64,000 bases of DNA, from contig CANQMX010000002.1 in the NCBI GenBank assembly GCA_947625095.1, positions 58,429 through 122,428 of the forward strand, in the 5' to 3' direction. Source of the DNA: an uncultured Clostridia bacterium (GTDB taxonomy: Bacteria > Bacillota > Clostridia > Christensenellales > Borkfalkiaceae). The position numbers and the translations under genes are program-made. How positions within the stretch are numbered: position 1 is the stretch's first letter; the number at the start of each line of letters is the position of its first letter. This document shows, in pieces, positions 32,976-50,869 of the stretch. The notes beneath the pieces are model-generated. The model saw only the letters and a list, made by a program, of their open reading frames with translations, ran no database searches and was not told the origin of the DNA.

Positions 32976-33039
32976 TTCTTTGCTTTTCTCCTGTCTTTTC
33001 TTTGCTTAAAGCAACTATCGCACAAAACCGTTCCGTCTT

Positions 33040-33186: not shown

Positions 33187-33197
33187 CTCGCCGCACC

Positions 33198-33452: not shown

Positions 33453-33453
33453 A

Positions 33454-34200: not shown

Positions 34201-34224
34201 AAATAGTTACCTCCATACTTTTTT

Positions 34225-34695
34225 TTAGACGTTACCCTCGTCTGCTCTGCTTTTAAGCCAGTCTGCAAACCAAGACTTGTCTTCCGAAAGCCATTCTTCC
34301 GCTTTGTCGATTGCTGCGTTTGCCGCCTCGTCTGAACTGTCTATTTTTTCTTCGAGGGCCTTGATGAGCAGTTCCTCAATTTGCTCCGGAGTGAAGCAAG
34401 AGGCAAGGAACCCGTTAATCTCAACCTCTAACTTTGCATCCGCTCCCGCCTTAATCGCATTATCTACCGTCATCTCGTCTTTGAGACAGTCTTCGCAGAC
34501 TCCACTGTACAAATCATCATCGTGGAAATACTCTCCGCAAATATCGCACGCTGATGCCTCCGATACCGAACCGCCACAGTGGCACACGCTATAATCCTCG
34601 TAACACCCTCCCATATAATCACTTACATAGGACCGTTCCGTTCGGAGGTCGTCTTCGTCCAAAACCGAACCACAATCGTCACAAATATACTTCAT
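34225..34695 (-). CDS. Hypothetical acidic protein with paired CxxC motifs (zinc-ribbon-like)
   Basis: MKYICDDCG...CHCGG...CDICG...CEDC; start chosen for spacing from the GGAGGAA RBS. Confidence 0.6.
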   Translation of the reverse strand: MKYICDDCGSVLDEDDLRTERSYVSDYMGGCYEDYSVCHCGGSVSEASACDICGEYFHDDDLYSGVCEDCLKDEMTVDNAIKAGADAKLEVEINGFLASCFTPEQIEELLIKALEEKIDSSDEAANAAIDKAEEWLSEDKSWFADWLKSRADEGNV

Positions 34696-34743
34696 ATCCA
34701 TTCCTCCAAAGTTAAGCAAACGCAGACCGCACAATATGTAGTC

Positions 34744-35100
34744 CTATTTGTTGATGAGCGCTTCTAAATCTCTTATACTTTTTTCGAGCGCATCCTCTAT
34801 CAAGTAAAGCGATTCTTGCGCATTTCCGTTAAGTGCCGGAACTTTGATTTCCTTTGTCTCGTTGCACAACAGTGTGAGCAACTGCTTTGCGCCTCTTAAA
34901 TTTATCAATATTTGCATTAAATCTTTCATACAGATACCTCCGTCATAATAATGGTTGGCAATCTGCGTTTGCCCTTTACTCAAAAAAGGAGCGTCCTCTC
35001 CGTATAAGGCAAAAAGCGCCGCTTGCCTCTCGGTAGGCTCCTTGATGCCGTAAAACAGTATCAACTTTGCCCTTGCTTGTTCTGCTGCGCCGTTTCTCAT
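34744..35100 (-). CDS. Hypothetical protein (118 aa)
   Basis: Track ORF, tightly packed. Confidence 0.6.
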   Translation of the reverse strand: MRNGAAEQARAKLILFYGIKEPTERQAALFALYGEDAPFLSKGQTQIANHYYDGGICMKDLMQILINLRGAKQLLTLLCNETKEIKVPALNGNAQESLYLIEDALEKSIRDLEALINK

Positions 35101-35102
35101 TT

Positions 35103-35714
35103 TTATACCTCCTCGATTATTCCGTCTATATATCCCTGTGTTCTCCCGAGGAACACGGCCTCACAAATGCGGGACTTTGCGTCCTTGTCAATACTCGAAA
35201 AACTTATTTCCTCATATTCTCCGTCTACCACAATAACAATGCCGTCTTCCGTCATCCGCCAGACTCCGCTGAACTCGACCGGTGCCGAACTGGAATCAAT
35301 AATCTCCGCACCTATACTTTTGCCCTCGTCTATGTATCCACGGTGAAGAACGCATACTCCGTTGTCGCACAGTCTAATTGTTTCAACGTCTCCTGTTTCG
35401 CTCTTTGCTTTGATGAGGCAATCCCTCCCCGATATGTTTTTGACGTACAGGTGGTCGTCTTTGTTATCCGCTATTAAATCTCTTGAAAGGCCCGTATCCC
35501 TGCAATTTGGAACTCCCCGATAAAGAGGATTAGCTCCTGTGCAATATTCGTTATTGAACTCTTGGAGAAAGCGAGAAAACGCTTCGCTGCAATCAACCTC
35601 TTCGAGCGCCATAAACGCTCTGTCGGGAATACCTCCTGTCTCTGCGCACCTTATGGTGGGAGTTGACACAATAACTCTACCGCTCACTATTGCTGCTATC
35701 TTCATATTTTCCAT
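35103..35714 (-). CDS. Hypothetical protein (203 aa)
   Basis: Start at ATG 35712-35714 behind GAGGTG; the track GTG 35729 is an alternative. Confidence 0.6.
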   Translation of the reverse strand: MENMKIAAIVSGRVIVSTPTIRCAETGGIPDRAFMALEEVDCSEAFSRFLQEFNNEYCTGANPLYRGVPNCRDTGLSRDLIADNKDDHLYVKNISGRDCLIKAKSETGDVETIRLCDNGVCVLHRGYIDEGKSIGAEIIDSSSAPVEFSGVWRMTEDGIVIVVDGEYEEISFSSIDKDAKSRICEAVFLGRTQGYIDGIIEEV

Positions 35715-35725
35715 ATCTCTGCACC

Positions 35726-36088
35726 TCACGCCGCAATCACATATTTCAGTTCTCTTATCTGGCTCTTGACCCTTTCGATATTGCGCTTTGCTACTTTGAC
35801 CATATCTTTGTCCTCGATGAATATGTAAAGGCTTAATTTTTCTTTCCAGTATTTCAAATCGTCTTTCTTGGCGTCGATTTCTTTCTGTATTTCATCTATA
35901 ATGGTCTGATTCTCCGCTCTTCTTCTGATAGCGTCCTCGCTTTCCGGGATGGCTTTGATGTCGAGCATTTTAACGAACTGCTGCTTGGTAACGTTTTCGG
36001 GAAGGGCACCGTACATCGCTTGGTAAACTTCAAAGGTTTCAACGCTTACTTCCTTTCCTATCATTTCCTCGAACTCGCATTTCATCAT
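35726..36088 (-). CDS. Hypothetical protein (120 aa), first gene of accessory operon 1
   Basis: Start moved to ATG 36086-36088 (MMKCEFEE) behind GGAGG; the track TTG start lies inside the repeated promoter-proximal palindrome. Confidence 0.6.
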   Translation of the reverse strand: MMKCEFEEMIGKEVSVETFEVYQAMYGALPENVTKQQFVKMLDIKAIPESEDAIRRRAENQTIIDEIQKEIDAKKDDLKYWKEKLSLYIFIEDKDMVKVAKRNIERVKSQIRELKYVIAA

Positions 36089-36106: not shown

Positions 36107-36207
36107 CTTGCAAATCTGCAAGTTTTATTTTATGCTTTTATTATATCTTACACAACTGTAATTGTAAAGCATTTTTTATGCCTTTTCGTGAAATTTTTTA
36201 TTTTTTT
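36107..36207 (-). promoter_or_regulatory. Repeated promoter-operator module P1
   Basis: Minus strand TTTACA (36163-36168)-17 nt-TATAAT (36140-36145); spacer holds TTACAGTTGTGTAA; downstream palindrome CTTGCAGATTTGCAAG; upstream A/T tract; about 95 bp nearly identical to P2. Confidence 0.75.
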
Positions 36208-36252
36208 GGGAAATGTAACTATTGCGTTTATATTTTTGAGGTCAAAATGGTA

Positions 36253-36279
36253 CAAAAAAAAGGACGCACCCTGCGTCCT
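36253..36279 (-). terminator. Rho-independent terminator ending accessory operon 2
   Basis: Minus strand aggacgca-ggg-tgcgtcct followed by ttttttttt. Confidence 0.75.
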
Positions 36280-36293
36280 CAATTTGCGTTTTC

Positions 36294-36857
36294 TTATATA
36301 TTGAAGTAGTCCGAATCTTCCTCGCCTCCGCAGTTAAGATAGAACTGCTTTGCGTTTTCCGGAGTTATCCTTGCCAAACAGGCGCTGTTGCCAGTCTCGA
36401 AGTAGGCCACTGTAAAAAACTCCCCAGTGCAGATGTCCTTGAACAACTCGAACCAACCTCCATAAATTTTTGGCGTATGACACAACGAGGTTGATTTATC
36501 AGTGTCGAACTGTATTCCGTCCACCAGTTGCACAACCCTCGGACCCGTGCTTTTCTGCCTTTGTTTGAGGACGAGATTGCTGGATAGGTCTACCATCTGG
36601 ATTTCATATCCGAGAATGTTGCTAATCTTGACCCATTCTTCCGCATCTATCGTGCCGTTTTTCATCCTATTGGAAAAGTTCTGGGAACTCCACCCCATCT
36701 GTGCGGCTACGTCCTTTTTCTTCATACCCTTTGCAAGCATTGCTTGATTGAGCATCTCAACTACTGTCATAAAACTACTTCCTAAAACCTGTCTCTGCAT
36801 ATTATGGTACTCCTTTTCGTTTAATTTGTCAAGCATTTTCGTAATTTCACGAAACAC
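36294..36857 (-). CDS. HTH-domain protein (187 aa), candidate repressor
   Basis: MTVVEMLNQAMLAKGMKKKDVAAQMGWSSQNFSNRMKNGT has an XRE-like HTH pattern, plus an about 100-aa C-terminal domain; last gene of operon 2. Confidence 0.6.
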   Translation of the reverse strand: MFREITKMLDKLNEKEYHNMQRQVLGSSFMTVVEMLNQAMLAKGMKKKDVAAQMGWSSQNFSNRMKNGTIDAEEWVKISNILGYEIQMVDLSSNLVLKQRQKSTGPRVVQLVDGIQFDTDKSTSLCHTPKIYGGWFELFKDICTGEFFTVAYFETGNSACLARITPENAKQFYLNCGGEEDSDYFNI

Positions 36858-36858
36858 T

Positions 36859-37185
36859 TTATTCGTCCTTTGCGTAATTATTTACAAGGTCTTTTATATC
36901 TTGGTCGTTTGCAATATCGCACCATTCGGAATCGAAGTATTCATCCACCAAAGATGCGAGGATGTGTCCCGCTGCCTTATCGTGAATTTTTATGAGGGAC
37001 TTGCTACTTATCCAGTCGTATTCTCCGCAAGTGAATAGGTCATAGAACGTCTCCGTTACCATAATCCTATATGCGTTTTTGAAAATATCCTCTTTTGACC
37101 CGCTCAAAATCCGCTCTTTGTACTCCTGCCATTCCGTCTCAACGGATGCCTTTACAACAGACTCTATGATTGTTTCTTTTTTCAT
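36859..37185 (-). CDS. Hypothetical protein (108 aa)
   Basis: Track ORF; 1-nt gap to the next gene. Confidence 0.6.
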   Translation of the reverse strand: MKKETIIESVVKASVETEWQEYKERILSGSKEDIFKNAYRIMVTETFYDLFTCGEYDWISSKSLIKIHDKAAGHILASLVDEYFDSEWCDIANDQDIKDLVNNYAKDE

Positions 37186-37592
37186 AGAAACCCCCTCCTC
37201 CCTCTTTCTTCTTCGTCGTGGTCTTTAATGACCCGCATATCAAACCCGCTCTGGATGAACTTGTCACACAAAGCGTCGTTAACCCCGTTTCCGAGATAGG
37301 TATATATGAGCATCCACTCGTCGCAGTCATAACTTACGTTGAGGAACTCGTTTAGACTGTTTCTGACTCGGTTCTGGTACTCCAAATTGTTAGCCTTGCT
37401 CCTAAACGGTTCCGTCTTACAGGCGTCTCTTGAACACCACGAGAGAACTTTTCTGTATAAGTCTTGCTCCGTTTCAACTCTTTTGAGGCTGAAATAGAGG
37501 TTCGACTTTTTATCGAGGATAAGTTCTTCTTCGCCGTTGATAAAACTGCCGGGAAACAGCATCATCAATTCCCGAACTCTCTTGTTAATCAT
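37182..37592 (-). CDS. Hypothetical protein (136 aa)
   Basis: Track ORF; 4-nt overlaps on both sides. Confidence 0.6.
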   Translation of the reverse strand: MINKRVRELMMLFPGSFINGEEELILDKKSNLYFSLKRVETEQDLYRKVLSWCSRDACKTEPFRSKANNLEYQNRVRNSLNEFLNVSYDCDEWMLIYTYLGNGVNDALCDKFIQSGFDMRVIKDHDEEERGRRGFL

Positions 37593-38095
37593 ATTGCCAC
37601 TTTGCCTCCTATTACCTTATCGAGTAGACCGTCGTACAACGCTTTGTATGTGTCCCTCTCCACTCTCGTTTTTGTTAATTCGTCGGTTACATCCTTGGCG
37701 ACGCCCGCATCTTTTTTAACAACCTCGTCGGCGGAGTTCTTTTTCCCAGACGCATCCGGTTCTATTCCGAGGCTTATCATAAGGGCGGCGTTTATCATAT
37801 CCATTTCATATTTGGTACAGGTCGCAACGTACTCTCCTATCCTGTCCACCGATACGGAACATACTTGCTCGCACAAAGCGATGGATGGCCTTTCAGAACT
37901 ACGGATGTCTATGTGCGTAGGCAAGTCCGTTTTGGGCCTTGTAGTAAGGTAAACTATCTCTACAACCGAACTGTGGCGATTGCAAGAATTGTTTGAGACG
38001 ATTATTGCCGGACGCCCCGCTCGCTGCTCGCTACCCTCTTCTTGATAGCCGCTTACGATGTAATAAATTTCTCCTCTGTCAATTTCTCCGTTCAT
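37589..38095 (-). CDS. PemK/MazF-fold toxin-like protein with about 55-aa C-terminal extension
   Basis: RGEIYYI...GSEQRAGRPAIIVSNN...VVEIVYLTTRPK.DLPTHIDI...ALCEQVCSVSVDRIG parallels the chromosomal MazF at 9169; extra charged helical tail. Confidence 0.65.
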   Translation of the reverse strand: MNGEIDRGEIYYIVSGYQEEGSEQRAGRPAIIVSNNSCNRHSSVVEIVYLTTRPKTDLPTHIDIRSSERPSIALCEQVCSVSVDRIGEYVATCTKYEMDMINAALMISLGIEPDASGKKNSADEVVKKDAGVAKDVTDELTKTRVERDTYKALYDGLLDKVIGGKVAI

Positions 38096-38355
38096 TGATT
38101 TGTCTCCAAATATTTTTTATATCCGCCAGCCATATAAGACTCTTTGTTGTTGCAACGTTCTTGATACTCCTCTTCTGACATAGGCCTTATGCGAAGTATC
38201 CTCTCATCGGTGAGGTTCCACTGCCGGATGTACAGATTTCCTCTTTTCCTCGCAGCCTCCGCATTTTGAACATTGAATACAGCCTCATTGAATGGCGTTT
38301 TCGGTGTGTAGTCGTTCCCTATCAAAACGGCATACATATTCGTCTTGGAACCCAT
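38092..38355 (-). CDS. Hypothetical protein (87 aa), positional candidate antitoxin
   Basis: 4-nt overlap with the MazF-like gene downstream; no recognisable antitoxin fold. Confidence 0.5.
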   Translation of the reverse strand: MGSKTNMYAVLIGNDYTPKTPFNEAVFNVQNAEAARKRGNLYIRQWNLTDERILRIRPMSEEEYQERCNNKESYMAGGYKKYLETNQ

Positions 38356-38357
38356 AT

Positions 38358-38876
38358 TTACGCCGCCTTTCTGATTTTGTATTGGAGCGTTATGTCTCCC
38401 TTGATTCTTTCATCTCTTACCTGTTGCCTACAAGTGTCGAATATCATTCCACGCTCCTTCTTTGCGCCCATCAAGTATTCATACCCGGCATCTTTGAAAA
38501 AGCGCACTTCCTCCCAATACGTCGAACTCCCATCTGTTAAGGCGTCGTAGTCACTTCTCCTAATGTAGTCCTCCGTGCTGGCGTGAGCAGACCACTGCTC
38601 TTTAACTGCACGTTCTTCCGGAGTTAGGTCTCTGTATCCGGCACTGTAAACGGTCAGCGTTTCTCCGTCATAATCTACAAGACTCGCCTTGGGGAGCGGC
38701 AACTCGCTTACATCTCCTCCGACGTTCTGGAAAAAGATAGAGACGGTGTTGCACCCAACAATCTTTCTCCAACCCTGCAACCGAGCCGGTATGACGCTTT
38801 CACCGAACCGCTTAATCATTAAGCCCTCGTATTCACCCGTACTCGCCTCTCTTTTGAGTTCTGCAAGTGTTTTCAT
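38358..38876 (-). CDS. Hypothetical protein (172 aa)
   Basis: Track ORF. Confidence 0.6.
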   Translation of the reverse strand: MKTLAELKREASTGEYEGLMIKRFGESVIPARLQGWRKIVGCNTVSIFFQNVGGDVSELPLPKASLVDYDGETLTVYSAGYRDLTPEERAVKEQWSAHASTEDYIRRSDYDALTDGSSTYWEEVRFFKDAGYEYLMGAKKERGMIFDTCRQQVRDERIKGDITLQYKIRKAA

Positions 38877-38977
38877 TTATGTCTCCTTTTTTGGCCCTGT
38901 AAGGCCACATTTATTTTTGTGTATTGTTTGTTGTCAACCCACTTTGCGCCCGTTATGGTGCTTGTAGGGGCGTAATT

Positions 38978-39766
38978 TTATGCCTTTGGCGTGTAGGTCT
39001 TCAACTTGTCGTCCCACACATATTCATCTTCTCCGCCGACGAGTTCAAACGCAAGTTCGTATGCCTCTTTTGAATAGTCGGCGTATGTTTCTGCCGCAAC
39101 TTCCTCTCCCGAATCGTACTCCGCCCAGCCCGTGTAGTGTCCGGTCTGCTCTTCGGCATATTCGTACTGGAATCTATATTGAGGATGCTGCGCCGACCAC
39201 TTTCGCATAAGGGTCCGGACGTCGCTCCAAGCAGTGGAGAAGAACAAAACGTCTCCCTCTATAAGGGTGTCGCAAGCATTCCACTTTGTACCCCAGTGTT
39301 CCACGCTCCAATCGTACCAGTCGATTGCCCCAAATTCCAACACATTGTCCAGCGCTCGTCTGCCGTAGTTAAGTACATCTTCCGCTGTTGCGAACTTGGG
39401 TTCCGAGCCGTCTTTGCTGTGGTTCTTAACGATGTATTCAATCTTTGCCGCCGCATCATCGTCCGGAATAAACACCGACTTCGACGAGAGGCGCAAATGT
39501 TTCGTTTGGCTCTTGAAGTATGCGGGCATATACTTATCCATAAGGCTTTCGTCGTTTTTGATGCTGTTGAGGAAAAGTTTAACGCAATCTTCCGTAATGG
39601 ACCCAGCGATGATGTCCAGTTCTTTGGGCATCGGAAGGATGCTGTTGAAGTCAAACGAAATTTCTTTTCCATTCTTGAAGCAATGGGCGAGTATCAACTC
39701 GTTGCCGGTCATCATCGCTTCGTCTTTTGCTATTACTGTTACTCTGTTATATACATAGTTCGGCAT
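38978..39766 (-). CDS. Hypothetical protein, MPNY/MPNW-start family (possibly DUF1281-like)
   Basis: MPNYVYNRVTVIAKDE... N-terminus; similar start and size to the adjacent gene 39782..40459. Confidence 0.55.
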   Translation of the reverse strand: MPNYVYNRVTVIAKDEAMMTGNELILAHCFKNGKEISFDFNSILPMPKELDIIAGSITEDCVKLFLNSIKNDESLMDKYMPAYFKSQTKHLRLSSKSVFIPDDDAAAKIEYIVKNHSKDGSEPKFATAEDVLNYGRRALDNVLEFGAIDWYDWSVEHWGTKWNACDTLIEGDVLFFSTAWSDVRTLMRKWSAQHPQYRFQYEYAEEQTGHYTGWAEYDSGEEVAAETYADYSKEAYELAFELVGGEDEYVWDDKLKTYTPKA

Positions 39767-39781
39767 TTTACTTATCCTCCT

Positions 39782-40459
39782 TTAACCGAAAAAATCAAAC
39801 GCTGTCGGGTGGACCTCATCAAATCTGTTGATGTCGCACCAATAGCAACCGTCAAAACCTTTACGCTGTGCGTATGCTATAATTCTGTTCTCGACCTCTT
39901 CTGACAACTTGTAAAGATTTGTGGTCTTATGATACTTGAACGGCATATTTTCATCCAGCCAAGCGAATATCTCCTTCTCCGAATGGAACGAGTATTTCTC
40001 TTCAACCGTAACCTCCGTTCCGTCTTTGTCCGGATAGCATATATCCACGCAGAAATCGTCTTGATAAAAGCAATCTTCCTCATCCCATTTGCAATATACC
40101 GCACACCCGCTTTCTTCTGAAATATACGCTACCTTTACTCCGGGATAAAAACTTTTTGCAATTTCGTACCAAAGTCTAACCTTTGGACTCCAAGCCGTAA
40201 GCGTCAGTATTGAGAAATACCAAAAGCCTTGCTTTTCCTTGACCCCTTCCGCCTCTTCAACACTACCCCTGCACTCTATATCTTCCGGGCGATATTCAGG
40301 GAAAAAAGCCGCCACGAAATCACCCATCCATCCGTTGCCGAAGCCGTTCGGTACGGACGCCGGTCCATCATAGATGTTGACGAACTTTCTGTGCATTTCC
40401 TCGATGACCTCCTTGTTTGGGGAATAAAAAGTCACCGAACTCGAACACCAATTAGGCAT
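39782..40459 (-). CDS. Hypothetical protein, MPNY/MPNW-start family (possibly DUF1281-like)
   Basis: Start moved to ATG 40457-40459 (MPNWCSSSVTFYSP) behind GGAGG. Confidence 0.55.
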   Translation of the reverse strand: MPNWCSSSVTFYSPNKEVIEEMHRKFVNIYDGPASVPNGFGNGWMGDFVAAFFPEYRPEDIECRGSVEEAEGVKEKQGFWYFSILTLTAWSPKVRLWYEIAKSFYPGVKVAYISEESGCAVYCKWDEEDCFYQDDFCVDICYPDKDGTEVTVEEKYSFHSEKEIFAWLDENMPFKYHKTTNLYKLSEEVENRIIAYAQRKGFDGCYWCDINRFDEVHPTAFDFFG

Positions 40460-40466
40460 ATCCCAT

Positions 40467-41051
40467 TTACCTCCTATTTGCGTAATCTGTAAATTCCGCT
40501 CTGTGTACAAACAGGCAGTAGTAATCTCCGCCATCGTCTCGGAACTCTACCTGCGGAAGCCCGTCTGTAAGTCTCGTTCTCTCCTCTCCGGTGATGTCTT
40601 TCAAAAAGAAATTATCATCTTTGAGTAAACTGTCTTTTTCTTGCTCGTATCTGGCGAGCGCCTCATCTTTGTCGGTTGTGCGCAGATAGACAATTTCTTC
40701 GACTTCCCCGTCGCACCTGCTCTCTTCTTTTACTATGTAGATATTGCGCTCTACCTTCGAGGTACCGCCGCAATTTTTTACTCCCTCAAATATAACCTCG
40801 CCCTCAAACAAGGCTGCTTGATATATCTCACAGGAGTCTTCGCTCGTGTACTCATTTTCCAGCCAATGCGTAAGTTCGTCATCCTTTACGAGCCTATAAG
40901 GGTGATTGCTATTCTCGGTCAAGTAGTCAATGAGCCACTCCTTTCTGACGGCGAAGATGTAATCGACGTCCTCTGAAAACTCGGTGCCGACAATGAGGTT
41001 TCCATTAACCAAAAGCACCTTGATGTCTTCATACAACAAATTTCTGTCCAT
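40467..41051 (-). CDS. Hypothetical protein (194 aa)
   Basis: Start moved to ATG 41049-41051 (MDRNLLYED). Confidence 0.6.
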   Translation of the reverse strand: MDRNLLYEDIKVLLVNGNLIVGTEFSEDVDYIFAVRKEWLIDYLTENSNHPYRLVKDDELTHWLENEYTSEDSCEIYQAALFEGEVIFEGVKNCGGTSKVERNIYIVKEESRCDGEVEEIVYLRTTDKDEALARYEQEKDSLLKDDNFFLKDITGEERTRLTDGLPQVEFRDDGGDYYCLFVHRAEFTDYANRR

Positions 41052-41061
41052 AGTCCTCTCC

Positions 41062-41199
41062 TTATTTTTTCTTGAACATCCACGACTCGTTGTGCTTGGC
41101 AAGTTTCTTTTCTGCCTTGAACAACAAGATTACGAGCGAAACGATTGCAACAACTGCTATCGAAAGCCCAACAACATTTGCTATAAGCAACGCCTTCAT
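41062..41199 (-). CDS. Possible single-pass membrane peptide (45 aa)
   Basis: Hand translation MKALLIANVVGLSIAVVAIVSLVILLFKAEKKLAKHNESWMFKKK; ATGA overlap with the upstream stop; below the track cutoff. Confidence 0.45.
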   Translation of the reverse strand: MKALLIANVVGLSIAVVAIVSLVILLFKAEKKLAKHNESWMFKKK

Positions 41200-41387
41200 A
41201 GTAAAACCTCCTTTTTAACTCTTTTTTTGACTATCCTTAATGGAATATGTTCGTTCTCCGCATAGGCCTTTAACTGTGCCTTTGCGGCCTTGTGGGTATC
41301 CTCGGAGAGGATGTCATCCCACCCGCTCTCGTCGCTGTAACGACCTTGCAAAACATATACGTCATCCGTCTTTCTTTGATAATCCAT
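41196..41387 (-). CDS. Hypothetical protein (63 aa)
   Basis: Track ORF. Confidence 0.5.
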   Translation of the reverse strand: MDYQRKTDDVYVLQGRYSDESGWDDILSEDTHKAAKAQLKAYAENEHIPLRIVKKRVKKEVLL

Positions 41388-41397
41388 CTTCCCGTCC

Positions 41398-41919
41398 TCA
41401 AAAATTGTAGTCGTAGTATTCGTGGCGCCCGTTTCTGATTTGACAGCCCTTGTAAACGAACATCCCTTTCTTTTCGCTCCACCTGCACTTCAAAACCTCA
41501 CCGTTCGGGTCTCGTTCGTAAGACCACTTTTGTTCGTCTTGATTTGTGCAGTGGGCCGCAAAGCCTCCGGGGATAAACTCCGGCTTGAAATCCGGAGACA
41601 GCGTGGCCTTATCTCTTTGAATGGTTATCGTCTTCGCCGTCTTCGCAATTACTGTATAGGCGTGAGCGTCGCTGTAAAGACACAGCGTAACTCCATCCCC
41701 AACTTCTACCTCTCTGCGCTCTTCCGTCCAAATCTGGCACTTTAAGCGGTCCATCTTATCACTCGCAGCACTACCATAAACACGCCAATACTCGTTGAGC
41801 AGTTTATCGTAGTTGGAGCCGTCCTCCGAACATTTGGAGCGGACCATCTTTTGGAGCATCTCATTGTTTTCCTCTTTGAGATTTTTGAGCATAATCTTTA
41901 ACTCTTCACTGCGTTTCAT
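41398..41919 (-). CDS. Hypothetical protein (173 aa)
   Basis: Track ORF. Confidence 0.6.
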   Translation of the reverse strand: MKRSEELKIMLKNLKEENNEMLQKMVRSKCSEDGSNYDKLLNEYWRVYGSAASDKMDRLKCQIWTEERREVEVGDGVTLCLYSDAHAYTVIAKTAKTITIQRDKATLSPDFKPEFIPGGFAAHCTNQDEQKWSYERDPNGEVLKCRWSEKKGMFVYKGCQIRNGRHEYYDYNF

Positions 41920-42239
41920 TATTCAGCCCCCATCAAATCCTCGACCGTTGCGCTATCTCCAATATAGATGTCTCTCTCAATTCCGAGACCGTAGCGCCCA
42001 CGATGATTCTGCAAATCCGAAAGCATTATGTATCCCCATTCCCACTCGTAAATGTGGCAATATCCAAACAGCATCCAGTCTCCGTTCTCTTGTTTCTCTG
42101 CCTCTGTAATGAGCCACGTCCCTGCACCCGTAGGGTTAAAATACTTGACGAGGACTGTCGCCTTGACCCCCTTGCCGTCTTGGGAATACAGTGGATGTCT
42201 CTCAAACTTCTTTTCGATTGACTTTGTAAGTAACTTCAT
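41919..42239 (-). CDS. DUF2958-like protein
   Basis: MKLLTKSIEKKFERHPLYSQDGKGVKATVLVKYFNPTGAGTWLITEAE matches my recollection of the DUF2958 N-terminal pattern (PLYSQ...KFF.P...WTWY.TE). Confidence 0.6.
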   Translation of the reverse strand: MKLLTKSIEKKFERHPLYSQDGKGVKATVLVKYFNPTGAGTWLITEAEKQENGDWMLFGYCHIYEWEWGYIMLSDLQNHRGRYGLGIERDIYIGDSATVEDLMGAE

Positions 42240-42252
42240 AACCTTCCCTCCA

Positions 42253-42669
42253 TTAAACGTCCAGCCCGAACGCCTCTGCAACTTTCCATAGATTGCCGCC
42301 AAGATGTCCGACCTTAAACCAGCGTGTAAATCTCTTACCCGTGCAATCGTACTCTGAATAGATTCGAGTAGCGCACTCGTCGTAGAGATAATCTAAAACC
42401 TCTTGTTTGGTGCCGTCGAACTCTAATGGGTCAGCATAGATAACAACGCAACCCTCGCCATCCGAGTCATAGATAATCGTGTCTTTGGGCTTATTTTCGG
42501 AAAGTCTGCGCAACTTTTCACGCAATTCTTGAATCCGGCCCGTTGCAGACCACCTGTCGAGAATTTCTCTGCGTTCGTTTCCGGTCTTTCCCATCAGTTG
42601 ACTGTGACGAAGGGCAAACATTACTCTTAAAAACCCGTCGTAGTTTCTGTTGGGCGTGCAAACGTTCAT
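42253..42669 (-). CDS. Hypothetical protein (138 aa), first gene of accessory operon 2
   Basis: Start moved to ATG 42667-42669 (MNVCTPN) behind GAGGAGG; the track TTG start lies in the repeated palindrome. Confidence 0.6.
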   Translation of the reverse strand: MNVCTPNRNYDGFLRVMFALRHSQLMGKTGNERREILDRWSATGRIQELREKLRRLSENKPKDTIIYDSDGEGCVVIYADPLEFDGTKQEVLDYLYDECATRIYSEYDCTGKRFTRWFKVGHLGGNLWKVAEAFGLDV

Positions 42670-42684
42670 ACCAGCCTCCTCTAT

Positions 42685-42778
42685 CTTGCAAATCTGCAAG
42701 TTTTATTTTATGCTTTTATTATATCTTACAGAACTGTAATTGTAAAGCGTTTTTATGCCTTTTCGTGAAATTTTTTTG
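42685..42778 (-). promoter_or_regulatory. Repeated promoter-operator module P2
   Basis: Minus strand TTTACA (42741-42746)-17 nt-TATAAT (42718-42723); perfect palindrome TTACAGTTCTGTAA (42726-42739) in the spacer; CTTGCAGATTTGCAAG palindrome downstream. Confidence 0.75.
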
Positions 42779-42845
42779 GAATTTTATTTTTTTCATTATT
42801 GCGTGTATCGTTTGTGTGCGCCTTATGCCCTCGCTCGAATGAATA

Positions 42846-42867
42846 CGCCCGCCACACAGGGCGGGCG
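42846..42867 (-). other. GC-rich hairpin 16 nt downstream of the VR2 stop (DGR target-recognition hairpin and/or terminator)
   Basis: Minus strand CGCCCGCC-CTGTGT-GGCGGGCG; same loop and similar spacing as the hairpin after VR1 (51658-51683). Confidence 0.6.
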
Positions 42868-42883
42868 ATTCTTGGAGTAGAGA

Positions 42884-43693
42884 TTATACGCAAAAGCCGA
42901 GGCACACGCCGTTCGAGTTGTCAGCGCCGTCGCCGTCGACGTAGCCACCGCCGTAGACGTAGAGGAAGTAGTAGGAATCGTCAACGCGAGGAGAACGGAG
43001 CCACCAGTAGCCAGTGGAGCCACCAGACCTGCGCTTGATGCGATTATTCTCGTCGTCTTCAAAATATGCGTACTGCGCTCCCTCATCCGCTACGTCGTCA
43101 CCATCCAGCCCGCACACCTCCGATTCGGAGAAAAGGAACAGCTTGTCCACTGTGGTTCCGACTTCTCGTGAGCCGCCGCCAATCGTTGTGGTTTTTTCGA
43201 CCTGCTTGATGACGGCCTTTGCCGCATCTGGTAGCAATCTGTACAGCCTCTCCATATAGACCGTGCGCATCTTCGAGTCTTTCCATCCGCCCTCGTTGGA
43301 CCATACCTCGTTCATCTCGTACCAACCGTCGATAATCCCCTTGAACCCGAACGTGATACCGGCACGATTTGACGTTCTCGCAATCCTATCGTGGTTGAAC
43401 CCAAGGATTACGAGTTTCACCACCTCTCCGGTGAGCAATTCGACGTCTTTTTCTTGCCCGACCCAGAAGTGTTTTTGCGCACACCCGGACTCGGCAATTC
43501 TTGCAATTTCCGCCCAACTCATATTGTTGAGCGAGTCCACGTCTTGCGAAACGTGGTAGTTGTGCAGAGCCGCAAATACCGGACAACTGCTCTCGCACCC
43601 AAGGCTTTTTAACTTTGGGCATAAGCAGTTGGTCCTGCACAATTCGTCTTCCGCCATCTTTCTGGCTCTTTCGTTCATCTTTGTTTCATTCAT
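42884..43693 (-). CDS. Second DGR target protein (269 aa), non-structural context
   Basis: Start ATG 43691-43693 behind AGGAGG; C-terminal about 200 aa homologous to the C-terminus of fibre 51698..53311 (ILGF.HD...GITFG...NEGGW..S.MR...); ends ...WWLRSPRVDDSYYFLYVYGGGYVDGDGADNSNGVCLGFCV, encoded by VR2. Confidence 0.85.
   Translation of the reverse strand: MNETKMNERARKMAEDELCRTNCLCPKLKSLGCESSCPVFAALHNYHVSQDVDSLNNMSWAEIARIAESGCAQKHFWVGQEKDVELLTGEVVKLVILGFNHDRIARTSNRAGITFGFKGIIDGWYEMNEVWSNEGGWKDSKMRTVYMERLYRLLPDAAKAVIKQVEKTTTIGGGSREVGTTVDKLFLFSESEVCGLDGDDVADEGAQYAYFEDDENNRIKRRSGGSTGYWWLRSPRVDDSYYFLYVYGGGYVDGDGADNSNGVCLGFCV
42890..43024 (-). repeat. DGR variable repeat VR2
   Basis: 135 bp aligned by hand to TR 50682-50816 without gaps: 18 mismatches, all where the TR coding strand has A. 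Confidence 0.9.
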
Positions 43694-43710
43694 ATATTTA
43701 ATCCTCCTAT

Positions 43711-43926
43711 TTAATCTTCGTAATCGTCCTCTCCCGCATAGGAAACCGACGTGATTTTGAGTCCCTCGTAGTCCACTGCGCACAGTAGCCTGTCTATAAG
43801 TTCGCTACGAGGCATTTGCTCAATTTCTTTTTCTGCAATCTCCATCGCCTCTTTTTTGCTGCTTGCCGAAATGGAGAAAACAGCATCTGCAACCGGTCTG
43901 AAATTTACGTCATATATCTTTTTCAT
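43711..43926 (-). CDS. Hypothetical protein (71 aa)
   Basis: Track ORF. Confidence 0.55.
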   Translation of the reverse strand: MKKIYDVNFRPVADAVFSISASSKKEAMEIAEKEIEQMPRSELIDRLLCAVDYEGLKITSVSYAGEDDYED

Positions 43927-43939
43927 ATACCCGCCTCTC

Positions 43940-44374
43940 TCACACGCAGTAATACGAGCCGTACTTCTTCAAAGCCTTGTTGAGTCCGGCTCTCAAAGCC
44001 TTGTTTTCAAGGACCTCTTCGAGCGTATATCCGCACGCATCAAGCGTATCTTCAAGTTCTTCCGTGTACCCGAACTCGTGATTGGCTAACTCGTAACTCC
44101 ACATTTGGTAGATGTACTTGCTGCCCGTCTTATCCGCCAGCACGGCCGCCTTGCGCTCCTCTTCTTGTCTTTCCATCATCTCGTGGAAGGCATCGGCGTC
44201 TGTCCTTTTGATGTAACCGCCTCCACCTATGGAGAATATCTTGTCCGTGTCGTTCACTGTCAGCCCGAACTTTTCCATCATTTTTTCAAACTGGTCTTGC
44301 GAAAATGCAAATCCGAACGGAAATTCGTTGACTTCTTTCTGGTGCTTTTCTTTCAACGCTATGTATTCGTTCAT
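43940..44374 (-). CDS. Hypothetical protein (144 aa)
   Basis: Track ORF. Confidence 0.6.
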   Translation of the reverse strand: MNEYIALKEKHQKEVNEFPFGFAFSQDQFEKMMEKFGLTVNDTDKIFSIGGGGYIKRTDADAFHEMMERQEEERKAAVLADKTGSKYIYQMWSYELANHEFGYTEELEDTLDACGYTLEEVLENKALRAGLNKALKKYGSYYCV

Positions 44375-44583
44375 CTTACTTCCTCCCCGTAGATGTTATA
44401 ATATTTGATAGGCCCCGCACCGACCTCCGGTTCAACGTGGATACACGAGTATGTGAGAACTGTAACTCCTTTCTTCTGGCGGAGTCCAAGCGCATATTTG
44501 CTTGCCTTTTCTACTGACCGAAACCGTTTCTTCTTCATTCCCTTGCTTTCTTTCCAAAAGTAGAGCCACACCGTCATACGCAC
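44371..44583 (-). CDS. Hypothetical protein (about 70 aa)
   Basis: Track ORF; start uncertain (ATG 44577 alternative). Confidence 0.5.
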   Translation of the reverse strand: MRMTVWLYFWKESKGMKKKRFRSVEKASKYALGLRQKKGVTVLTYSCIHVEPEVGAGPIKYYNIYGEEVR

Positions 44584-44858
44584 CCCCTCGCTCCTCTGTC
44601 GAGGACCTCTCTTACTTTCTCGCTGTAATGATATGAGGCATCAAACGGATGAAACAGAAGAGCCTTAATAAACTCCTCGTCCGGAGTAGTGCTTTGCCAG
44701 CCGTCGATGTTCTCCCCGAACCCGTTTGCTCTATCGCCAACCCTTTCAATTTGGTCGGCAAAATCAATCATCTTTTCTCCGTTCAAGTAAACTTCTGCAA
44801 CTCCCTGCGTTACTGAATACCGCTTACGCTTTACCTCAAATACATATTTCATACACAC
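44574..44858 (-). CDS. Hypothetical protein (94 aa)
   Basis: Track ORF. Confidence 0.55.
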   Translation of the reverse strand: MCMKYVFEVKRKRYSVTQGVAEVYLNGEKMIDFADQIERVGDRANGFGENIDGWQSTTPDEEFIKALLFHPFDASYHYSEKVREVLDRGARGCV

Positions 44859-44859
44859 C

Positions 44860-45357
44860 TCACTCTATACAAAAGTCAGACAGACTTCTATATTCCCTCA
44901 CTTCGTTGACAACTCCGTCTTTGAGGGCTTTGCGCATAATCTCAAAGATGTCTTCTCCGTGAGAAACGGCAACTTTCCCGAACCCGGACTTGACTTCTGT
45001 ATAAGAAACCAAGTATGTCGGACCCTCTTTCGAGTAACGTTTGAACCTCTTTTCGAGGTCTTGCAGGTCAATGAGTTCGGCAAAAAACAATTCGTCGTCC
45101 GGAATTATTTGCGAATAATCCTCTCCGAGCGGATAACGTGTAAAGTATTCCTTTACTGCTGCTTTCAGCGCTTCTTCGACTTCCGCTCTGCCTTCGCCTG
45201 CAAAGTAAAAGTCAATGTCTGCGCAGCCGCCATTTCCGTCGTTGTTATACCACCCGACTTTCTTGCCTTTATAGTAGATGCTGCCTTGACAGCCATCCCA
45301 CTCCCGGCCCTTAAAAGTCTTGATGTTTCTGATTTCAAACCCATAAATTGACGCCAT
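44860..45357 (-). CDS. Hypothetical protein (165 aa)
   Basis: Track ORF. Confidence 0.6.
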   Translation of the reverse strand: MASIYGFEIRNIKTFKGREWDGCQGSIYYKGKKVGWYNNDGNGGCADIDFYFAGEGRAEVEEALKAAVKEYFTRYPLGEDYSQIIPDDELFFAELIDLQDLEKRFKRYSKEGPTYLVSYTEVKSGFGKVAVSHGEDIFEIMRKALKDGVVNEVREYRSLSDFCIE

Positions 45358-45372
45358 CTTATATACCTCCGT

Positions 45373-45570
45373 TTAATATATCCACATTATCAGCCAGTCC
45401 ACCTTTTCGAGGTGCGCTCTCTTAATGCCGATTTTTTCCTTAAATGCCTTGAACGCAGATTTCAGCGTGTGAAACATAAACCGCATTTCATATCCGAACC
45501 ACTCCAAGTGCTTGCCCTCGTATCTCATCTTGATTATCCCGTTCTTGACTTGGTAGAAAACTGTATCCAT
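45373..45570 (-). CDS. Hypothetical protein (65 aa)
   Basis: Track ORF. Confidence 0.5.
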   Translation of the reverse strand: MDTVFYQVKNGIIKMRYEGKHLEWFGYEMRFMFHTLKSAFKAFKEKIGIKRAHLEKVDWLIMWIY

Positions 45571-45579
45571 AGTCCCTCC

Positions 45580-45909
45580 TCAATCTTGCAACTCGCAGAC
45601 TTTCTTGTAGTCAACAATCTTGCCAAACTCGTTAACCTGCTGCATACAGGTCTCTACCGTGCAGGGCGTAAGGGTTATGCGCTCTCCGTCATAAACGTAC
45701 TTTCTCGAACAGTTATACTTCCTGCTGGGGACTCTTACGTCCTTTCCTTCGCAGATGGACATAACTCTGTCCCACACTCCGCCGGTCCATTGACTGCCCC
45801 TAAAAACTTTAAGGGCAATACCGTCTATCCAGTTATACAAATCTACCGAATATCCCTCATCTATGTATCTATTTGCGGCATCCACTATCCTCTTTATCTC
45901 ATTTGACAT
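45580..45909 (-). CDS. Hypothetical protein (109 aa)
   Basis: Track ORF. Confidence 0.55.
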   Translation of the reverse strand: MSNEIKRIVDAANRYIDEGYSVDLYNWIDGIALKVFRGSQWTGGVWDRVMSICEGKDVRVPSRKYNCSRKYVYDGERITLTPCTVETCMQQVNEFGKIVDYKKVCELQD

Positions 45910-46162
45910 TGCTGTATCCCTCCAATCTTTTCTTGTCTTTTCTTACTTTGCGGAACTCCAAGCCCCACATCTCCGATATGAAGCCGATAACCTCATCCGC
46001 CGGAAGTTCTGCGAGCGTCTCGGCCAGTCCATCGTTGTCGTCCATATCCGCCCACTCCATTGCCTGTTCTCTCCACTGCTCAACGGTGTAGTCTCGGTAC
46101 ATCCCGAACTCTCCACCCTGCAAGTCTCTCGAAACTCTATATCTTATTTCCTTATCCATCAT
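45899..46162 (-). CDS. Hypothetical protein (87 aa)
   Basis: Start moved to the ATG that overlaps the upstream stop as ATGA. Confidence 0.5.
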   Translation of the reverse strand: MMDKEIRYRVSRDLQGGEFGMYRDYTVEQWREQAMEWADMDDNDGLAETLAELPADEVIGFISEMWGLEFRKVRKDKKRLEGYSNVK

Positions 46163-46557
46163 TGCTCCTCCGACCACCCTATAAGGGTTAACTCGTAATC
46201 TCTAACCTCCTTCTCGGTAAGCAACCTTGAATAGACAAGGATGTCGTGGAAGTTGCTCGTGAGGCTATCCTCTCTTCTTATCAATCCTTCCATTGGCTGA
46301 CATCCGGGAGAAAACCCCCTCAACCTCATTCCGTATGTATAGGTAACTGCCTTCTTCTCTCCCGCCAAAACATCGAAGTCGATTATATCCGCAGAGGGCT
46401 TGTTGTCCGCCCTCAATCTGCGAATCTGCTCGACCTCGTTGGGGAATTGGCAAACCCCGCCGAAAAACTTCTCGCAAAATGCCGCAATCGAATGGAACTT
46501 TGAGGTTCCATATACCGAGTACGAGCCGTCTTGATAAATAATCTGGTATCGTGTCAT
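46159..46557 (-). CDS. Hypothetical protein (132 aa)
   Basis: Track ORF; C-terminal YGMRLRGFSPGCQP...ILVYSRLLTEKEVRDYEL motif noted but not assigned. Confidence 0.6.
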   Translation of the reverse strand: MTRYQIIYQDGSYSVYGTSKFHSIAAFCEKFFGGVCQFPNEVEQIRRLRADNKPSADIIDFDVLAGEKKAVTYTYGMRLRGFSPGCQPMEGLIRREDSLTSNFHDILVYSRLLTEKEVRDYELTLIGWSEEQ

Positions 46558-46571
46558 ATCTTCTTACCTCC

Positions 46572-46916
46572 TTAATCTCTCGTAAGCAAGTCGTAGAGTT
46601 CTTGCGTTTCCTGTCTGTCGTGAATGGGAAGCGGATGTCCTGCAAGTTCGCTGAATCTTCCATCGCTCGAATAGGCAATGTTTCCACCAAACATCCATCC
46701 CAGATGTTCCGGCCTTGCTATCGGCTCCAAGAACTTATAACCGTTCCTGTCGCAAACCTTGACCAAGTTTTCCGGCGGATTGCTTTCGTCGATTTTTATG
46801 TGGCCATCTTCGCACACCAAGAGGAGTTGCTCGTATCTGCTGCTTATTCCTCCGTTGGTGCAATCGCAATCTCCGTTGCCCTTTGCTACATACACTTTAA
46901 TGGGTAATGCCTTCAT
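46572..46916 (-). CDS. Hypothetical protein (114 aa), first gene of accessory operon 3
   Basis: Track ORF; ATG preceded by GGAGGTT. Confidence 0.6.
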   Translation of the reverse strand: MKALPIKVYVAKGNGDCDCTNGGISSRYEQLLLVCEDGHIKIDESNPPENLVKVCDRNGYKFLEPIARPEHLGWMFGGNIAYSSDGRFSELAGHPLPIHDRQETQELYDLLTRD

Positions 46917-46927
46917 TGTGAACCTCC

Positions 46928-47036
46928 AAATCTCTTACTGAATGGTAAGATTTATTTTGTACTCCTATTATATCGTACAGAACTGTAAGTTGTAAAGCGT
47001 TTTTAAGCCTTTTTATGAAATTTTTTATTTTTTTTG
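46928..47036 (-). promoter_or_regulatory. Repeated promoter-operator module P3 (diverged copy)
   Basis: Minus strand TTTACA (46991-46996)-18 nt-TATAAT (46967-46972); TACAGTTCTGTA palindrome in the spacer; downstream inverted repeat tcttac/gtaaga; upstream A/T tract. Confidence 0.7.
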
Positions 47037-47062
47037 TTTTTGTAACGATTTTATGTATTTCT

Positions 47063-47185
47063 GGTTCGGAAATGACTGTTGAGCGGTATTTATCACAACA
47101 TAAATACCGTTGATGACAAAATATCGGTTCGGAAACTATCAAAGTAAAGTAGAGTAAAGAAAAGTATAGCAAAGTAAAGAAAAGC
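47063..47185. repeat. Non-coding region with direct and inverted short repeats (iteron-like)
   Basis: ggttcggaaa at 47063 and 47116; cggtatttat/ataaataccg inverted repeat (47084-47109); agtaaag x3 and aaagaaaag x2 between 47142 and 47184. Confidence 0.5.
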
Positions 47186-47348
47186 AAAGAAAAATACTCG
47201 TGCGCTCCCACCATTCTATCCGACCCAATAGAAACGCCTTATTTAAGCCGATAAGCGTCAATAGTAAAGTATGAGTATTTATAGGTAAAAGACGAAAAGT
47301 CTCGTTAGGTGGGTTGTAGGAGCCTTATTTTCTGCTTTTGGGCAAAAG

Positions 47349-47370
47349 AAAAAAGCCCACGTTATGGGCT
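47349..47370 (-). terminator. Rho-independent terminator after yafQ-like gene
   Basis: Minus strand agccca-taacg-tgggct followed by tttttt. Confidence 0.7.
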
Positions 47371-47396
47371 TTCCATAAAGTGGGCTATTCTTGCGG

Positions 47397-47672
47397 TCAA
47401 AACAGGTCTGAATGCGAACCCGTTCTTGACAGGTAGAGAATTATCTGTTCTCCATTCTTCTTGTAGATGAGCAACCAATCCGGTTCGATGTGGCACTCTC
47501 GGAATCCGTCATAGTTCCCGGACAACTCGTGGTCTCTGTATCTCGCATCGAGTTCTTCGTCGTTTGACAGTTTCTCAACGATGCCGAAAAGTTTATCGAG
47601 GTCTTTCCCTTGTCGCCGCACGAGTTTGAGGTCCTTCTTGAACTTTGTGGTAAAGCGAACTTCGTATCTCAT
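47397..47672 (-). CDS. yafQ: YafQ/RelE-family mRNA interferase toxin
   Basis: MRYEVRFTTKFKKDLKLVRRQGKDLDKL...HELSGNYDGFRECHIEPDWLLIY typical YafQ pattern; 4-nt overlap with the antitoxin gene. Confidence 0.85.
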   Translation of the reverse strand: MRYEVRFTTKFKKDLKLVRRQGKDLDKLFGIVEKLSNDEELDARYRDHELSGNYDGFRECHIEPDWLLIYKKNGEQIILYLSRTGSHSDLF

Positions 47673-49153: not shown

Positions 49154-49333
49154 CTATTTTGCTGGCTCGCCAAGACCGCCGCAGTCTGGGCAGAGCAACT
49201 TTTCAATGTCTATCTCTTTGCCTTCGAGACAATCGTACCACACGTCGCAGGGTTGCTTACAAGGCTTTGAACTACTTTCACAAACATCACAGATATTATC
49301 TACCGTGATTTTTTGCACTTCAAGATTGGGCAT
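49154..49333 (-). CDS. Possible small Cys-rich protein (59 aa)
   Basis: Hand translation MPNLEVQKITVDNICDVCESSSKPCKQPCDVWYDCLEGKEIDIEKLLCPDCGGLGEPAK; GGAGGTGGG RBS; ATG overlaps the 3' end of the RT gene; just below the track cutoff. Confidence 0.45.
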   Translation of the reverse strand: MPNLEVQKITVDNICDVCESSSKPCKQPCDVWYDCLEGKEIDIEKLLCPDCGGLGEPAK

Positions 49334-50816: not shown

Positions 50817-50869
50817 AACACAATGTTTACGGCATATAACCTATGATAAATTCATTCCTTCGGACAGCG

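Follow-up and report, generated by a model that had tools for sequence, protein, structure and literature searches.

The prophage end and its promoter modules

The stretch of DNA analysed here (hereafter the window) comprises 64,000 nucleotides from an uncultured Clostridia bacterium (GenBank assembly GCA_947625095.1, contig CANQMX010000002.1, positions 58,429 to 122,428). It holds one end of an integrated phage, and its subject of interest is a set of three closely similar promoter modules (P1, P2 and P3) in the accessory region of that phage, each of which carries a palindromic dyad in its spacer. The first 29.6 kb of the window are host DNA (58-62% GC) ending with tgt (28303-29595), and from ~29.8 kb onward the GC content falls to ~46%. 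In the low-GC part lie genes for a tape measure protein and a baseplate J-like protein as well as a diversity-generating retroelement (DGR), all of them transcribed leftward. The element is a Brigitvirus-like temperate myophage (i.e. a myovirus-type prophage), integrated beside tgt. The accessory region, which runs from 47 down to 29.8 kb, forms the distal prophage end, and the modules within it are composed as follows, O1 being the candidate operator in the spacer and O2 a second dyad further downstream.

36107-36207, minus strand: module P1, with the -35 TTTACA at 36168-36163, the -10 TATAAT at 36145-36140 and a spacer of 17; UP-like A/T tract upstream, Shine-Dalgarno site and ATG at 36088
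36161-36148, minus strand: candidate operator O1 of P1, TTACAGTTGTGTAA, 1 mismatch to TTACAGTTCTGTAA
36122-36107, minus strand: second dyad O2 of P1, CTTGCAGATTTGCAAG
42685-42778, minus strand: module P2, with the -35 at 42746-42741, the -10 at 42723-42718 and a spacer of 17
42739-42726, minus strand: candidate operator O1 of P2, perfect TTACAGTTCTGTAA
42700-42685, minus strand: second dyad O2 of P2, CTTGCAGATTTGCAAG
46928-47036, minus strand: module P3, with the -35 at 46996-46991, the -10 at 46972-46967 and a spacer of 18
46988-46975, minus strand: candidate operator O1 of P3, TTACAGTTCTGTAC, 1 mismatch to TTACAGTTCTGTAA
46950-46933, minus strand: second dyad O2 of P3, TCTTACCATTCAGTAAGA, with a perfect TTAC-N6-GTAA core

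On the minus strand P1 thus reads TTTCACGAAAAGGCATAAAAAATGC-TTTACA-a-TTACAGTTGTGTAA-ga-TATAAT-...-CTTGCAGATTTGCAAG-...GGAGG-ATG, which is also the layout of P2, except for the perfect TTACAGTTCTGTAA in the spacer of the latter, and P3 reads TTTACA-ac-TTACAGTTCTGTAC-ga-TATAAT-...-TCTTACCATTCAGTAAGA-...GGAGG-ATG. An earlier description of this DNA, made from the letters and a list of open reading frames (the sequence-only reading), had reported three minus-strand modules of the form TTTACA-17/18-TATAAT with a palindrome in the spacer that is perfect in P2 and imperfect in P1 and P3, a second palindrome downstream of the -10 and an A/T-rich tract upstream, all of which is borne out. In a scan with a sigma-70-like consensus each module matches 11 of the 12 consensus positions, and together they make up three of the four top promoter-like sites between 29.5 and 49.4 kb. 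The reported near-identity of P1 and P2 also holds when the modules are aligned (91/94 identical, or 96.8%), with P3 being 83-85% identical to each. There are no further copies, as a search of the 64 kb with an nhmmer profile returns these three and no others (E-values from 1e-27 to 4e-27).

When up to 2 mismatches to TTACAGTTCTGTAA are allowed, the window contains 4 matches versus 0.2 expected, all of them inside P1-P3 and two of them being both strands of the P2 site, and the exact pattern TTAC-N6-GTAA occurs at three sites, one per module (O1 in P1 and P2, O2 in P3). In all three modules O1 fills 14 of the 17 or 18 spacer positions, i.e. it overlaps the core promoter. Between phages the promoter core is 80-86% conserved, versus ~69-70% for the flanking coding DNA, and among the 20 distinct promoter-context modules of the window and its relatives 18 retain O1 with no more than one mismatch, with the -35, the -10 and the flanks varying. 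These comparisons support the view that P1-P3 are paralogous sigma-70-type promoters with a conserved spacer dyad.

The relatives' modules were recovered only with a relaxed pattern. A strict module pattern returned nothing from viral contigs and a second strict pattern nothing from metagenome contigs; megablast of 30-54 kb against phage and plasmid collections gave nothing either, and the first genes of P1 and P2, used as single-protein locus queries, retrieved no viral relatives. Rfam yielded no RNA family match on the modules, its only results being the RT-2 RNA of the DGR and two sub-threshold matches, of which one lies in the P3 leader and the other overlaps RT-2, and a search for tRNA genes found none.

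The dyad at the immunity switch of related phages

The relaxed pattern search led to the viral contig IMGVR_UViG_3300027542_000842 (63 kb), which shares gene order with the window, its proteins being 35-72% identical. There, the core TTGACA-a-TTACAGTTCTGTAA-gt-TAGAAT is found at three places, namely upstream of the homologue of the P3 operon, upstream of the homologue of the P1 operon, and upstream of a gene for a 73-aa Cro-like helix-turn-helix (HTH) protein. This Cro-like gene is divergent from that of a 118-aa CI-like HTH protein, which is followed by a large serine integrase, and downstream of cro lie a 167-aa regulator, an exonuclease and RecT, i.e. early lytic genes. A second perfect dyad is located at the 3' end of cro, 259 bp downstream and in a non-promoter context.

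The same arrangement, with the dyad in the promoter that separates the divergent genes of the repressor and the Cro-like protein, was found in the relatives L010, L016, L026/L027, L034 and L032 and in Faecalibacterium phage FP_Brigit (NC_047909). At the cro 3' end, L010 and L026 have a perfect copy of the operator and L016 a copy with 1 mismatch, in each case 259-266 bp downstream of the one at the switch; by chance, ~0.002 sites per 14 kb would be expected for a dyad with 12 specified bases. In L016 the early-promoter dyad is TTACAAAACTGTAA and the cro-end site lies at +266 bp; in L026/L027, the lineages closest to the window, the dyad is TTACAGTTCGGTAA, the perfect cro-end site lies at +261 bp, and the early promoter is of the TTTACA/TATAAT type of the window. 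L014, a prophage at the same tgt-yajC locus, has an extra perfect dyad 207 bp upstream of its P3 operator. Since the dyad recurs in relatives outside promoters as well (three lineages have it at the cro 3' end, L014 upstream of P3), O1 is read as an operator, and the comparison supports that it behaves like a protein operator common to several transcription units.

More distant relatives show what happens when the operator changes. The proteins of FP_Brigit, its CI-like protein included, are only ~34% identical to those of the window family, and its genome follows the same plan (integrase, CI, cro, early genes, structural genes, tail, DGR, lysis genes and a 10-kb accessory tail that holds MazF and then an HTH protein). 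Its dyad is a different one, CTTACC-N5-GGTAAG, and is present at five equivalent positions, two of which belong to the switch (the spacer of the early promoter and the cro 3' end) and three to the accessory region (the spacers of consensus promoters at 51.4, 52.4 and 57.6 kb), with O2-like copies ~37-41 bp downstream of the accessory promoters. L034 and L032, whose CI-like proteins are ~50-60% identical to the reference, have variants of the inner bases: TTACTGTTCGGTAA at the switch and TTACTTTTCGGTAA at the accessory promoter of L034, and TTAC-N6-GTAA with C/G inner bases at both places in L032. As the dyad changes alike at the switch and at the accessory promoters, the accessory promoters track the immunity operator of their own phage. 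The outer TTAC/GTAA bases are common to all lineages, which makes TTAC-N6-GTAA the core of the superfamily, and the recognition helix of the CI-like protein, TTE(A/T)T(I/V)SRY, hardly varies in any of the lineages either, in keeping with the invariant outer bases.

A proposed immunity regulon

The explanation that is favoured, and that we regard as reasonably probable, is that P1-P3 are copies of the phage's own early lytic promoter carrying the immunity operator, and that the three operons behind them constitute a CI-controlled immunity regulon which is off in the lysogen and on at infection or induction. That one repressor governs three transcription units had already been proposed from the window alone, and the proposal gains support from the common dyad, from its recurrence outside promoters and from its change along with the immunity region.

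Mechanistically, the modules would be paralogous copies of an early lytic (P_R-type) sigma-A promoter, each with the immunity operator O1 (TTACAG-N2-CTGTAA) in the spacer, and the terminators or hairpins upstream would keep transcription of the late, tail and DGR genes from reaching them. Repression in the lysogen would be due to a CI-like Xre protein of ~118 aa, dimeric or oligomeric, which would occupy O1 and thereby exclude RNA polymerase; its gene presumably lies beyond coordinate 64000, beside the serine integrase and at the far end of the prophage. Upon infection or induction the three accessory operons, as members of the immunity regulon, would fire at once with the early genes, independently of late transcription. 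We infer here that the CI-like protein (and perhaps Cro) binds and that its binding represses transcription, and the window's own switch region is presumed to resemble those of the relatives.

Several points weigh against this explanation. The window ends (at 64000) before its own switch, and the switch comparison rests on relatives. O1 carries 1 mismatch in P1 and in P3, and some accessory operators of relatives have decayed (3 mismatches in P2 of L022, only a half-site in the P1-equivalent of L034), from which it follows that such control is not obligatory everywhere. In FP_Brigit the CI-like protein and the HTH protein of the accessory region have both diverged to ~34%, each with a conserved recognition helix, so that co-variation alone cannot say which of the two binds the dyad. 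Finally, hints to the function of the cargo are few and weak, being limited to DarA_C, DUF2958 and a MazF-like toxin.

As to the binding protein, the most economical reading is that the CI-like repressor, possibly together with Cro, is the likeliest binder, because the early promoter must be repressed in the lysogen and its only dyad is O1.

Recombination between modules

The modules could also be mainly mobile regulatory cassettes that serve as recombination substrates and shuffle cargo, a reading which complements the immunity regulon and for which the arguments on the two sides are about evenly balanced. Its precedent is found in the promoter-early stem-loop (PeSL) elements of T4-type phages, repeated strong sigma-70 cassettes whose recombination leads to insertions, deletions and replacements (PMC2839356, PMC4122927). 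In both cases promoter cassettes flank small non-essential genes in plastic regions. PeSL elements, however, belong to virulent phages and are composites of promoter and terminator without a repressor operator, whereas the phages considered here are temperate, their modules carry the immunity operator, and a terminator is directly attached only at P1.

Recombination between cassettes is seen here as well. Copies within one genome are closer to each other than to their positional orthologues (P1/P3 95% in L013 and 96% in L019, 83% in L014, P1/P2 91-97% in the window), with same-genome copies being nearest neighbours in L013, L019 and the window, and on these identities the within-genome likeness is concerted evolution. 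P2 is absent after the VR2 hairpin (that of the remote variable repeat of the DGR) in L003/L013 and L014 and present in L016/L017/L019/L022 and the window, and the first genes of P2 are likewise present or absent between relatives.

A further case is L021 (ena:ERZ12802899 NODE_3134, 1-15900), a 13-kb element between queA and tgt in which ruvB-queA is followed by a serine integrase, two small genes and CI, then by a promoter, the P2 operon, the HTH gene and the P1 operon, and then by tgt. It has no lytic or structural genes, ~40 kb having been lost, and its promoter is an exact chimera, 100% native early promoter (as in L026/L027) up to TATAATA and 100% native P2 (as in L022) thereafter. A k-mer mis-assembly seems unlikely, because the longest exact stretch shared at the junction is only ~8 nt. 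Yet L021 is a single metagenomic contig; furthermore, recombination is the expected by-product of any dispersed repeat, and shuffling as such leaves the conserved operator unexplained.

A more far-reaching proposal is speculative and, as a whole, unlikely to hold. According to it, the modules are portable cassettes that recombine with each other and with the early promoter, capture and shuffle cargo, and may collapse a prophage to a 13-kb island like L021; such an island would act as a CI-gated 'sentinel' whose toxin and anti-defence cargo is silent until CI is removed by a related phage, by an antirepressor or by an inducing signal, and O2 would be a cargo-specific control element (a low-affinity operator or a hairpin in the 5' untranslated region, 5'-UTR).

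The HTH protein encoded upstream of P1

The sequence-only reading had put forward an HTH protein, encoded at 36294-36857, as the obvious candidate for the repressor. The gene is present, its start being most likely the ATG at 36800.

36294-36800, minus strand: Xre-type HTH protein, 168 aa, matching phrog_38278; Shine-Dalgarno AGGAG

If this protein were the repressor, it would be an Aca-like autoregulator at the 3' end of its operon that binds O1 and/or O2 and thereby damps the accessory promoters, which is regarded as unlikely. Its gene comes last in the P2 operon (in genomes without P2, in the P3 operon) and is found immediately before P1 in every relative, FP_Brigit (gp84) and L034 included, and O2 is confined to the accessory promoters and never found at the switch, both of which fit such a role. 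So does the two-dyad layout, which is like that of the anti-CRISPR (acr) operons repressed by anti-CRISPR-associated (Aca) proteins, where small anti-defence genes stand under a strong early promoter with inverted repeats and an HTH gene is found at the 3' end (PMC9410906, PMC8633003). In such an operon, however, the dyad would be operon-specific, whereas O1 is common to the lysis-lysogeny switch and the cro 3' end, far from the HTH gene. In the relatives the switch dyad stands between CI and Cro beside the integrase, and the HTH protein resembles neither the CI-like protein nor any solved Aca structure; it is thus not the best candidate. Moreover, the occurrence of two types of O2 in one genome (window, L019) is a poor fit to a single specific binder, and L034 has the HTH gene but only decayed O2 sites.

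The surroundings of the gene suggest another role. It always occurs within a block consisting of a MazF/PemK toxin, one or two small genes, the HTH gene, a terminator and P1, for which reason the protein may be an antitoxin or a local regulator, and MazF/PemK-x-HTH may be a multi-component toxin-antitoxin module in an early accessory operon. The HTH protein could conceivably still act as a co-regulator. Its family is rare (29 clusters), with full-length homologues of 166-170 aa. Examples of the block are found at 36294-38095 in the window, as gp83-gp84 in FP_Brigit, at 9099-10504 in L019 and at 9120-10504 in L021, and its MazF/PemK-like toxin is unusually long (168-177 aa). Some other ideas on the HTH protein were discarded: that it is a paralogue of the switch regulators (it is unrelated to the CI-like protein), that its presence is tied to O2 (not supported, given L034), and that conservation of the recognition helix could tell it apart from CI (uninformative, both helices being conserved).

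Constitutive or single-strand promoters, two improbable readings

It is improbable that the modules are constitutive moron promoters, active in the prophage, whose dyads, without function today, are relics of an early promoter that was duplicated long ago. Morons typically bring their own promoter and terminator, a layout that the neighbouring RelB/YafQ pair does have, and the degenerate dyads in the accessory copies of some relatives, as well as the single mismatches of O1 in P1 and P3, would suit relics. A relic would hardly be expected, though, to stay within one mismatch in nearly all modules while the -35, -10 and flanks vary, to follow the lineage-specific operator in FP_Brigit, L032 and L034, or to lie in a promoter core that is better conserved than the adjoining coding DNA. 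The speculation that the modules are single-strand DNA promoters, like Frpo of conjugative leading regions, can practically be dismissed: the palindromes are short and some cargo families (DUF2958, Api92-like, DarA_C) also occur in plasmid leading regions, but neither strand forms an extended fold (z-scores -1.46 to +0.07, with only the two short dyads pairing), the -35 and -10 share a strand and have the spacing of a duplex promoter, the tape measure protein, baseplate J and DGR mark the element, which is syntenic with FP_Brigit, as a tailed prophage and not a conjugative element, and the same module is the switch promoter in relatives.

Relation to known regulatory systems

The CI protein of the lactococcal phage TP901-1 is small and lacks an S24 peptidase domain. 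It represses at three sites, OR, OL and OD (PMC7250872), and the CI/MOR switch of that phage is like the one described here in its divergent CI and Cro-like genes, its palindromic operators and the extra operator beyond or inside the cro-like gene. All TP901-1 operators, however, lie within a switch of <1 kb, whereas the copies considered here are ~40-50 kb away, at the other genome end, where they would drive cargo. In phage P1 the C1 repressor has 22 dispersed operators (PMC8546580), so that there, too, one immunity repressor has operators scattered over the genome that reach many operons, including accessory functions. The phage P1 operators are asymmetric 17-mers in promoters that are not copies of each other, in contrast to the symmetric 14-bp dyad inside a duplicated whole promoter module and the small Xre-type repressor, unrelated to C1, that are proposed here. 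The stoperators of cluster A mycobacteriophages, likewise many repressor sites across a prophage that extend immunity control beyond the early promoter, are asymmetric, orientation-dependent and mostly outside promoters, and they block elongation (PMC9283540, PMC6550527), whereas the dyads here are symmetric and overlap promoter cores.

The regulatory logic thus stays within known phage concepts. The papers describing FP_Brigit make no mention of promoters or operators, and the immunity regulon appears to be undescribed for these phages. If the explanation is true, the 17-kb cargo end of gut Faecalibacterium-type phages would be an immunity-gated early regulon rather than a set of lysogenic-conversion morons, and TTAC-N6-GTAA inside a consensus promoter could serve as a sequence marker for early accessory genes, by which these can be ranked for anti-defence or host-takeover screens. 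The data also exemplify the remodelling of temperate phage genomes by dispersed regulatory repeats, through concerted evolution, cargo turnover and deletion, as in the remnant that lost 40 kb.

The second dyad

O2 has the form TTRC-N6(7)-GYAA in 12 of 14 accessory modules (the near-identical P1 copies of L001 and L002 being counted once), at 39.5-40.5 bp downstream of O1 from centre to centre and at about +12 to +27. It was never found in the switch promoters. Its symmetry is kept by compensatory changes, with one pair being A-T four times and G-C four times, and its covariation score exceeds that of all but 7 of 500 shuffles. Both types, TTGC..GCAA and TTAC..GTAA, occur together in the window and in L019.

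Two interpretations may be considered. The fixed 14-bp TTRC-N6-GYAA frame, which is the superfamily core, and the 40-bp phasing favour a weak auxiliary operator. The two copies with a 7-nt spacing and the presence of both sequence types in one genome favour a hairpin in the 5'-UTR. The symmetry-preserving changes are compatible with either model. On the plus strand, the O2 dyads of P2 (42685-42700) and P1 (36107-36122) are followed by a T-rich run, CTTGCAAATCTGCAAG TTTTATTTTA, and were flagged as terminator-like; in that orientation O2 could stop antisense transcription from entering the promoter.

Operons, terminators and cargo

The transcription units of the accessory region and the structures that separate them are listed below.

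42884-46916, minus strand: P3 operon, ~11 small genes
46159-46557: DarA_C-domain protein, P3 operon
43940-44374: DUF7659 protein, P3 operon
42884-43693: DUF6273 protein of 269 aa, last gene of the P3 operon, with a C-terminus formed by the remote DGR variable repeat
36294-42669, minus strand: P2 operon, ~14 genes, including DUF2958, an Api92-like/DUF1281_C protein and a DUF3848-like protein, with the HTH protein (36294-36800) last
37589-38095: MazF/PemK-like toxin, P2 operon
29865-36088, minus strand: P1 operon, ~12 genes, up to the prophage end beside the host tgt
31628-32317: DUF5131 protein, P1 operon
30192-31238: NAD-dependent epimerase/dehydratase, P1 operon
36260-36280, minus strand: intrinsic terminator with a 9-bp stem and a T-run, closing the P2 operon and insulating P1
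42846-42867, minus strand: GC-rich hairpin before P2 at the 3' end of the DGR variable repeat VR2, without a T-run
47350-47374, minus strand: intrinsic terminator after the RelB/YafQ pair, followed by a 310-bp non-coding leader and then P3
47669-47944, minus strand: RelB antitoxin
47397-47672, minus strand: YafQ/RelE-like toxin

The sequence-only reading had each module follow a hairpin or terminator, which is right in so far as a canonical terminator stands directly before P1, ~90 bp upstream of its -35; P2 is preceded by a GC hairpin without a T-run, and the terminator of P3 is 310 bp away. Its division of the accessory region into three operons is supported for the units of P1-P3 and leaves out a fourth. 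The RelB/YafQ pair has its own promoter at 48008-47980 (a perfect TTGACA-17-TGnTATAAT without the O1 dyad) and is bracketed by terminators at 48074-48046 and 47374-47350; because this unrelated promoter heads the pair, the accessory region holds at least four transcription units. By its layout the pair is a classical constitutive moron beside the operons that would be operator-controlled.

The P3 leader (47036-47350) contains five CTTTAC-type units at a phase of ~10 bp (47141-47190), a pair of direct repeats (TTTCCGAACC) and a hairpin rich in A and T, GGTATTTAT-N6-ATAAATACC. Leaders of this build also precede the P3 homologues in L003 (5740-5800) and L014 (2510-2610), and their architecture could represent bent DNA, extra TTAC half-sites or iterons.

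Regarding the cargo, PADLOC returned no match and no functional lead for ten cargo proteins, and PHROGs, run on a largely overlapping ten, returned only families without an assigned function. No known acr or aca families were detected in the library scans, which did not include an acr-specific library, and in the window the leads to anti-defence genes before the HTH gene come down to a DarA_C domain, DUF2958 and an Api92-like protein. In the relatives, the P1 operon of L019 encodes C5 and N6/N4 DNA methyltransferases (13777-16665), and an accessory operon of L032 encodes a Tad2-like (anti-Thoeris) protein (16901-17155). Such cargo is consistent with an anti-defence role of the genes behind these promoters, and that the cargo of the window has an early anti-defence role is a guess.

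Integration site and diversity-generating retroelement

The family uses a large serine recombinase to integrate between queA and tgt, giving the order ruvB-queA, prophage, tgt-yajC-SCIFF-secDF in the window, L014, L021, L022 and L025. The tgt promoter of the window (29757-29729, TG-extended) is situated just beyond the prophage end. The DGR has the following parts.

49320-50465: DGR reverse transcriptase (RT)
50454-50674: DGR RT-2 RNA, RF03077, 112 bits
50644-50816: template repeat (TR)
51666-51838: variable repeat VR1, in a 537-aa DUF6273 tail-fibre-like protein
42852-43024: remote variable repeat VR2, ~7.8 kb away, in the 269-aa DUF6273 protein

The complete DGR spans 49320-53311 plus the remote VR2. 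Mismatches between TR and the variable repeats fall mainly at TR adenines (17 of 23 for VR1 and 20 of 26 for VR2). In L018 (2711-4925) a 566-aa DUF6273 tail-fibre-like protein is directly followed by the P2 module, with the DGR cassette and the P3 operon being absent, an arrangement that could be the result of a deletion between the two homologous genes that bear variable repeats.

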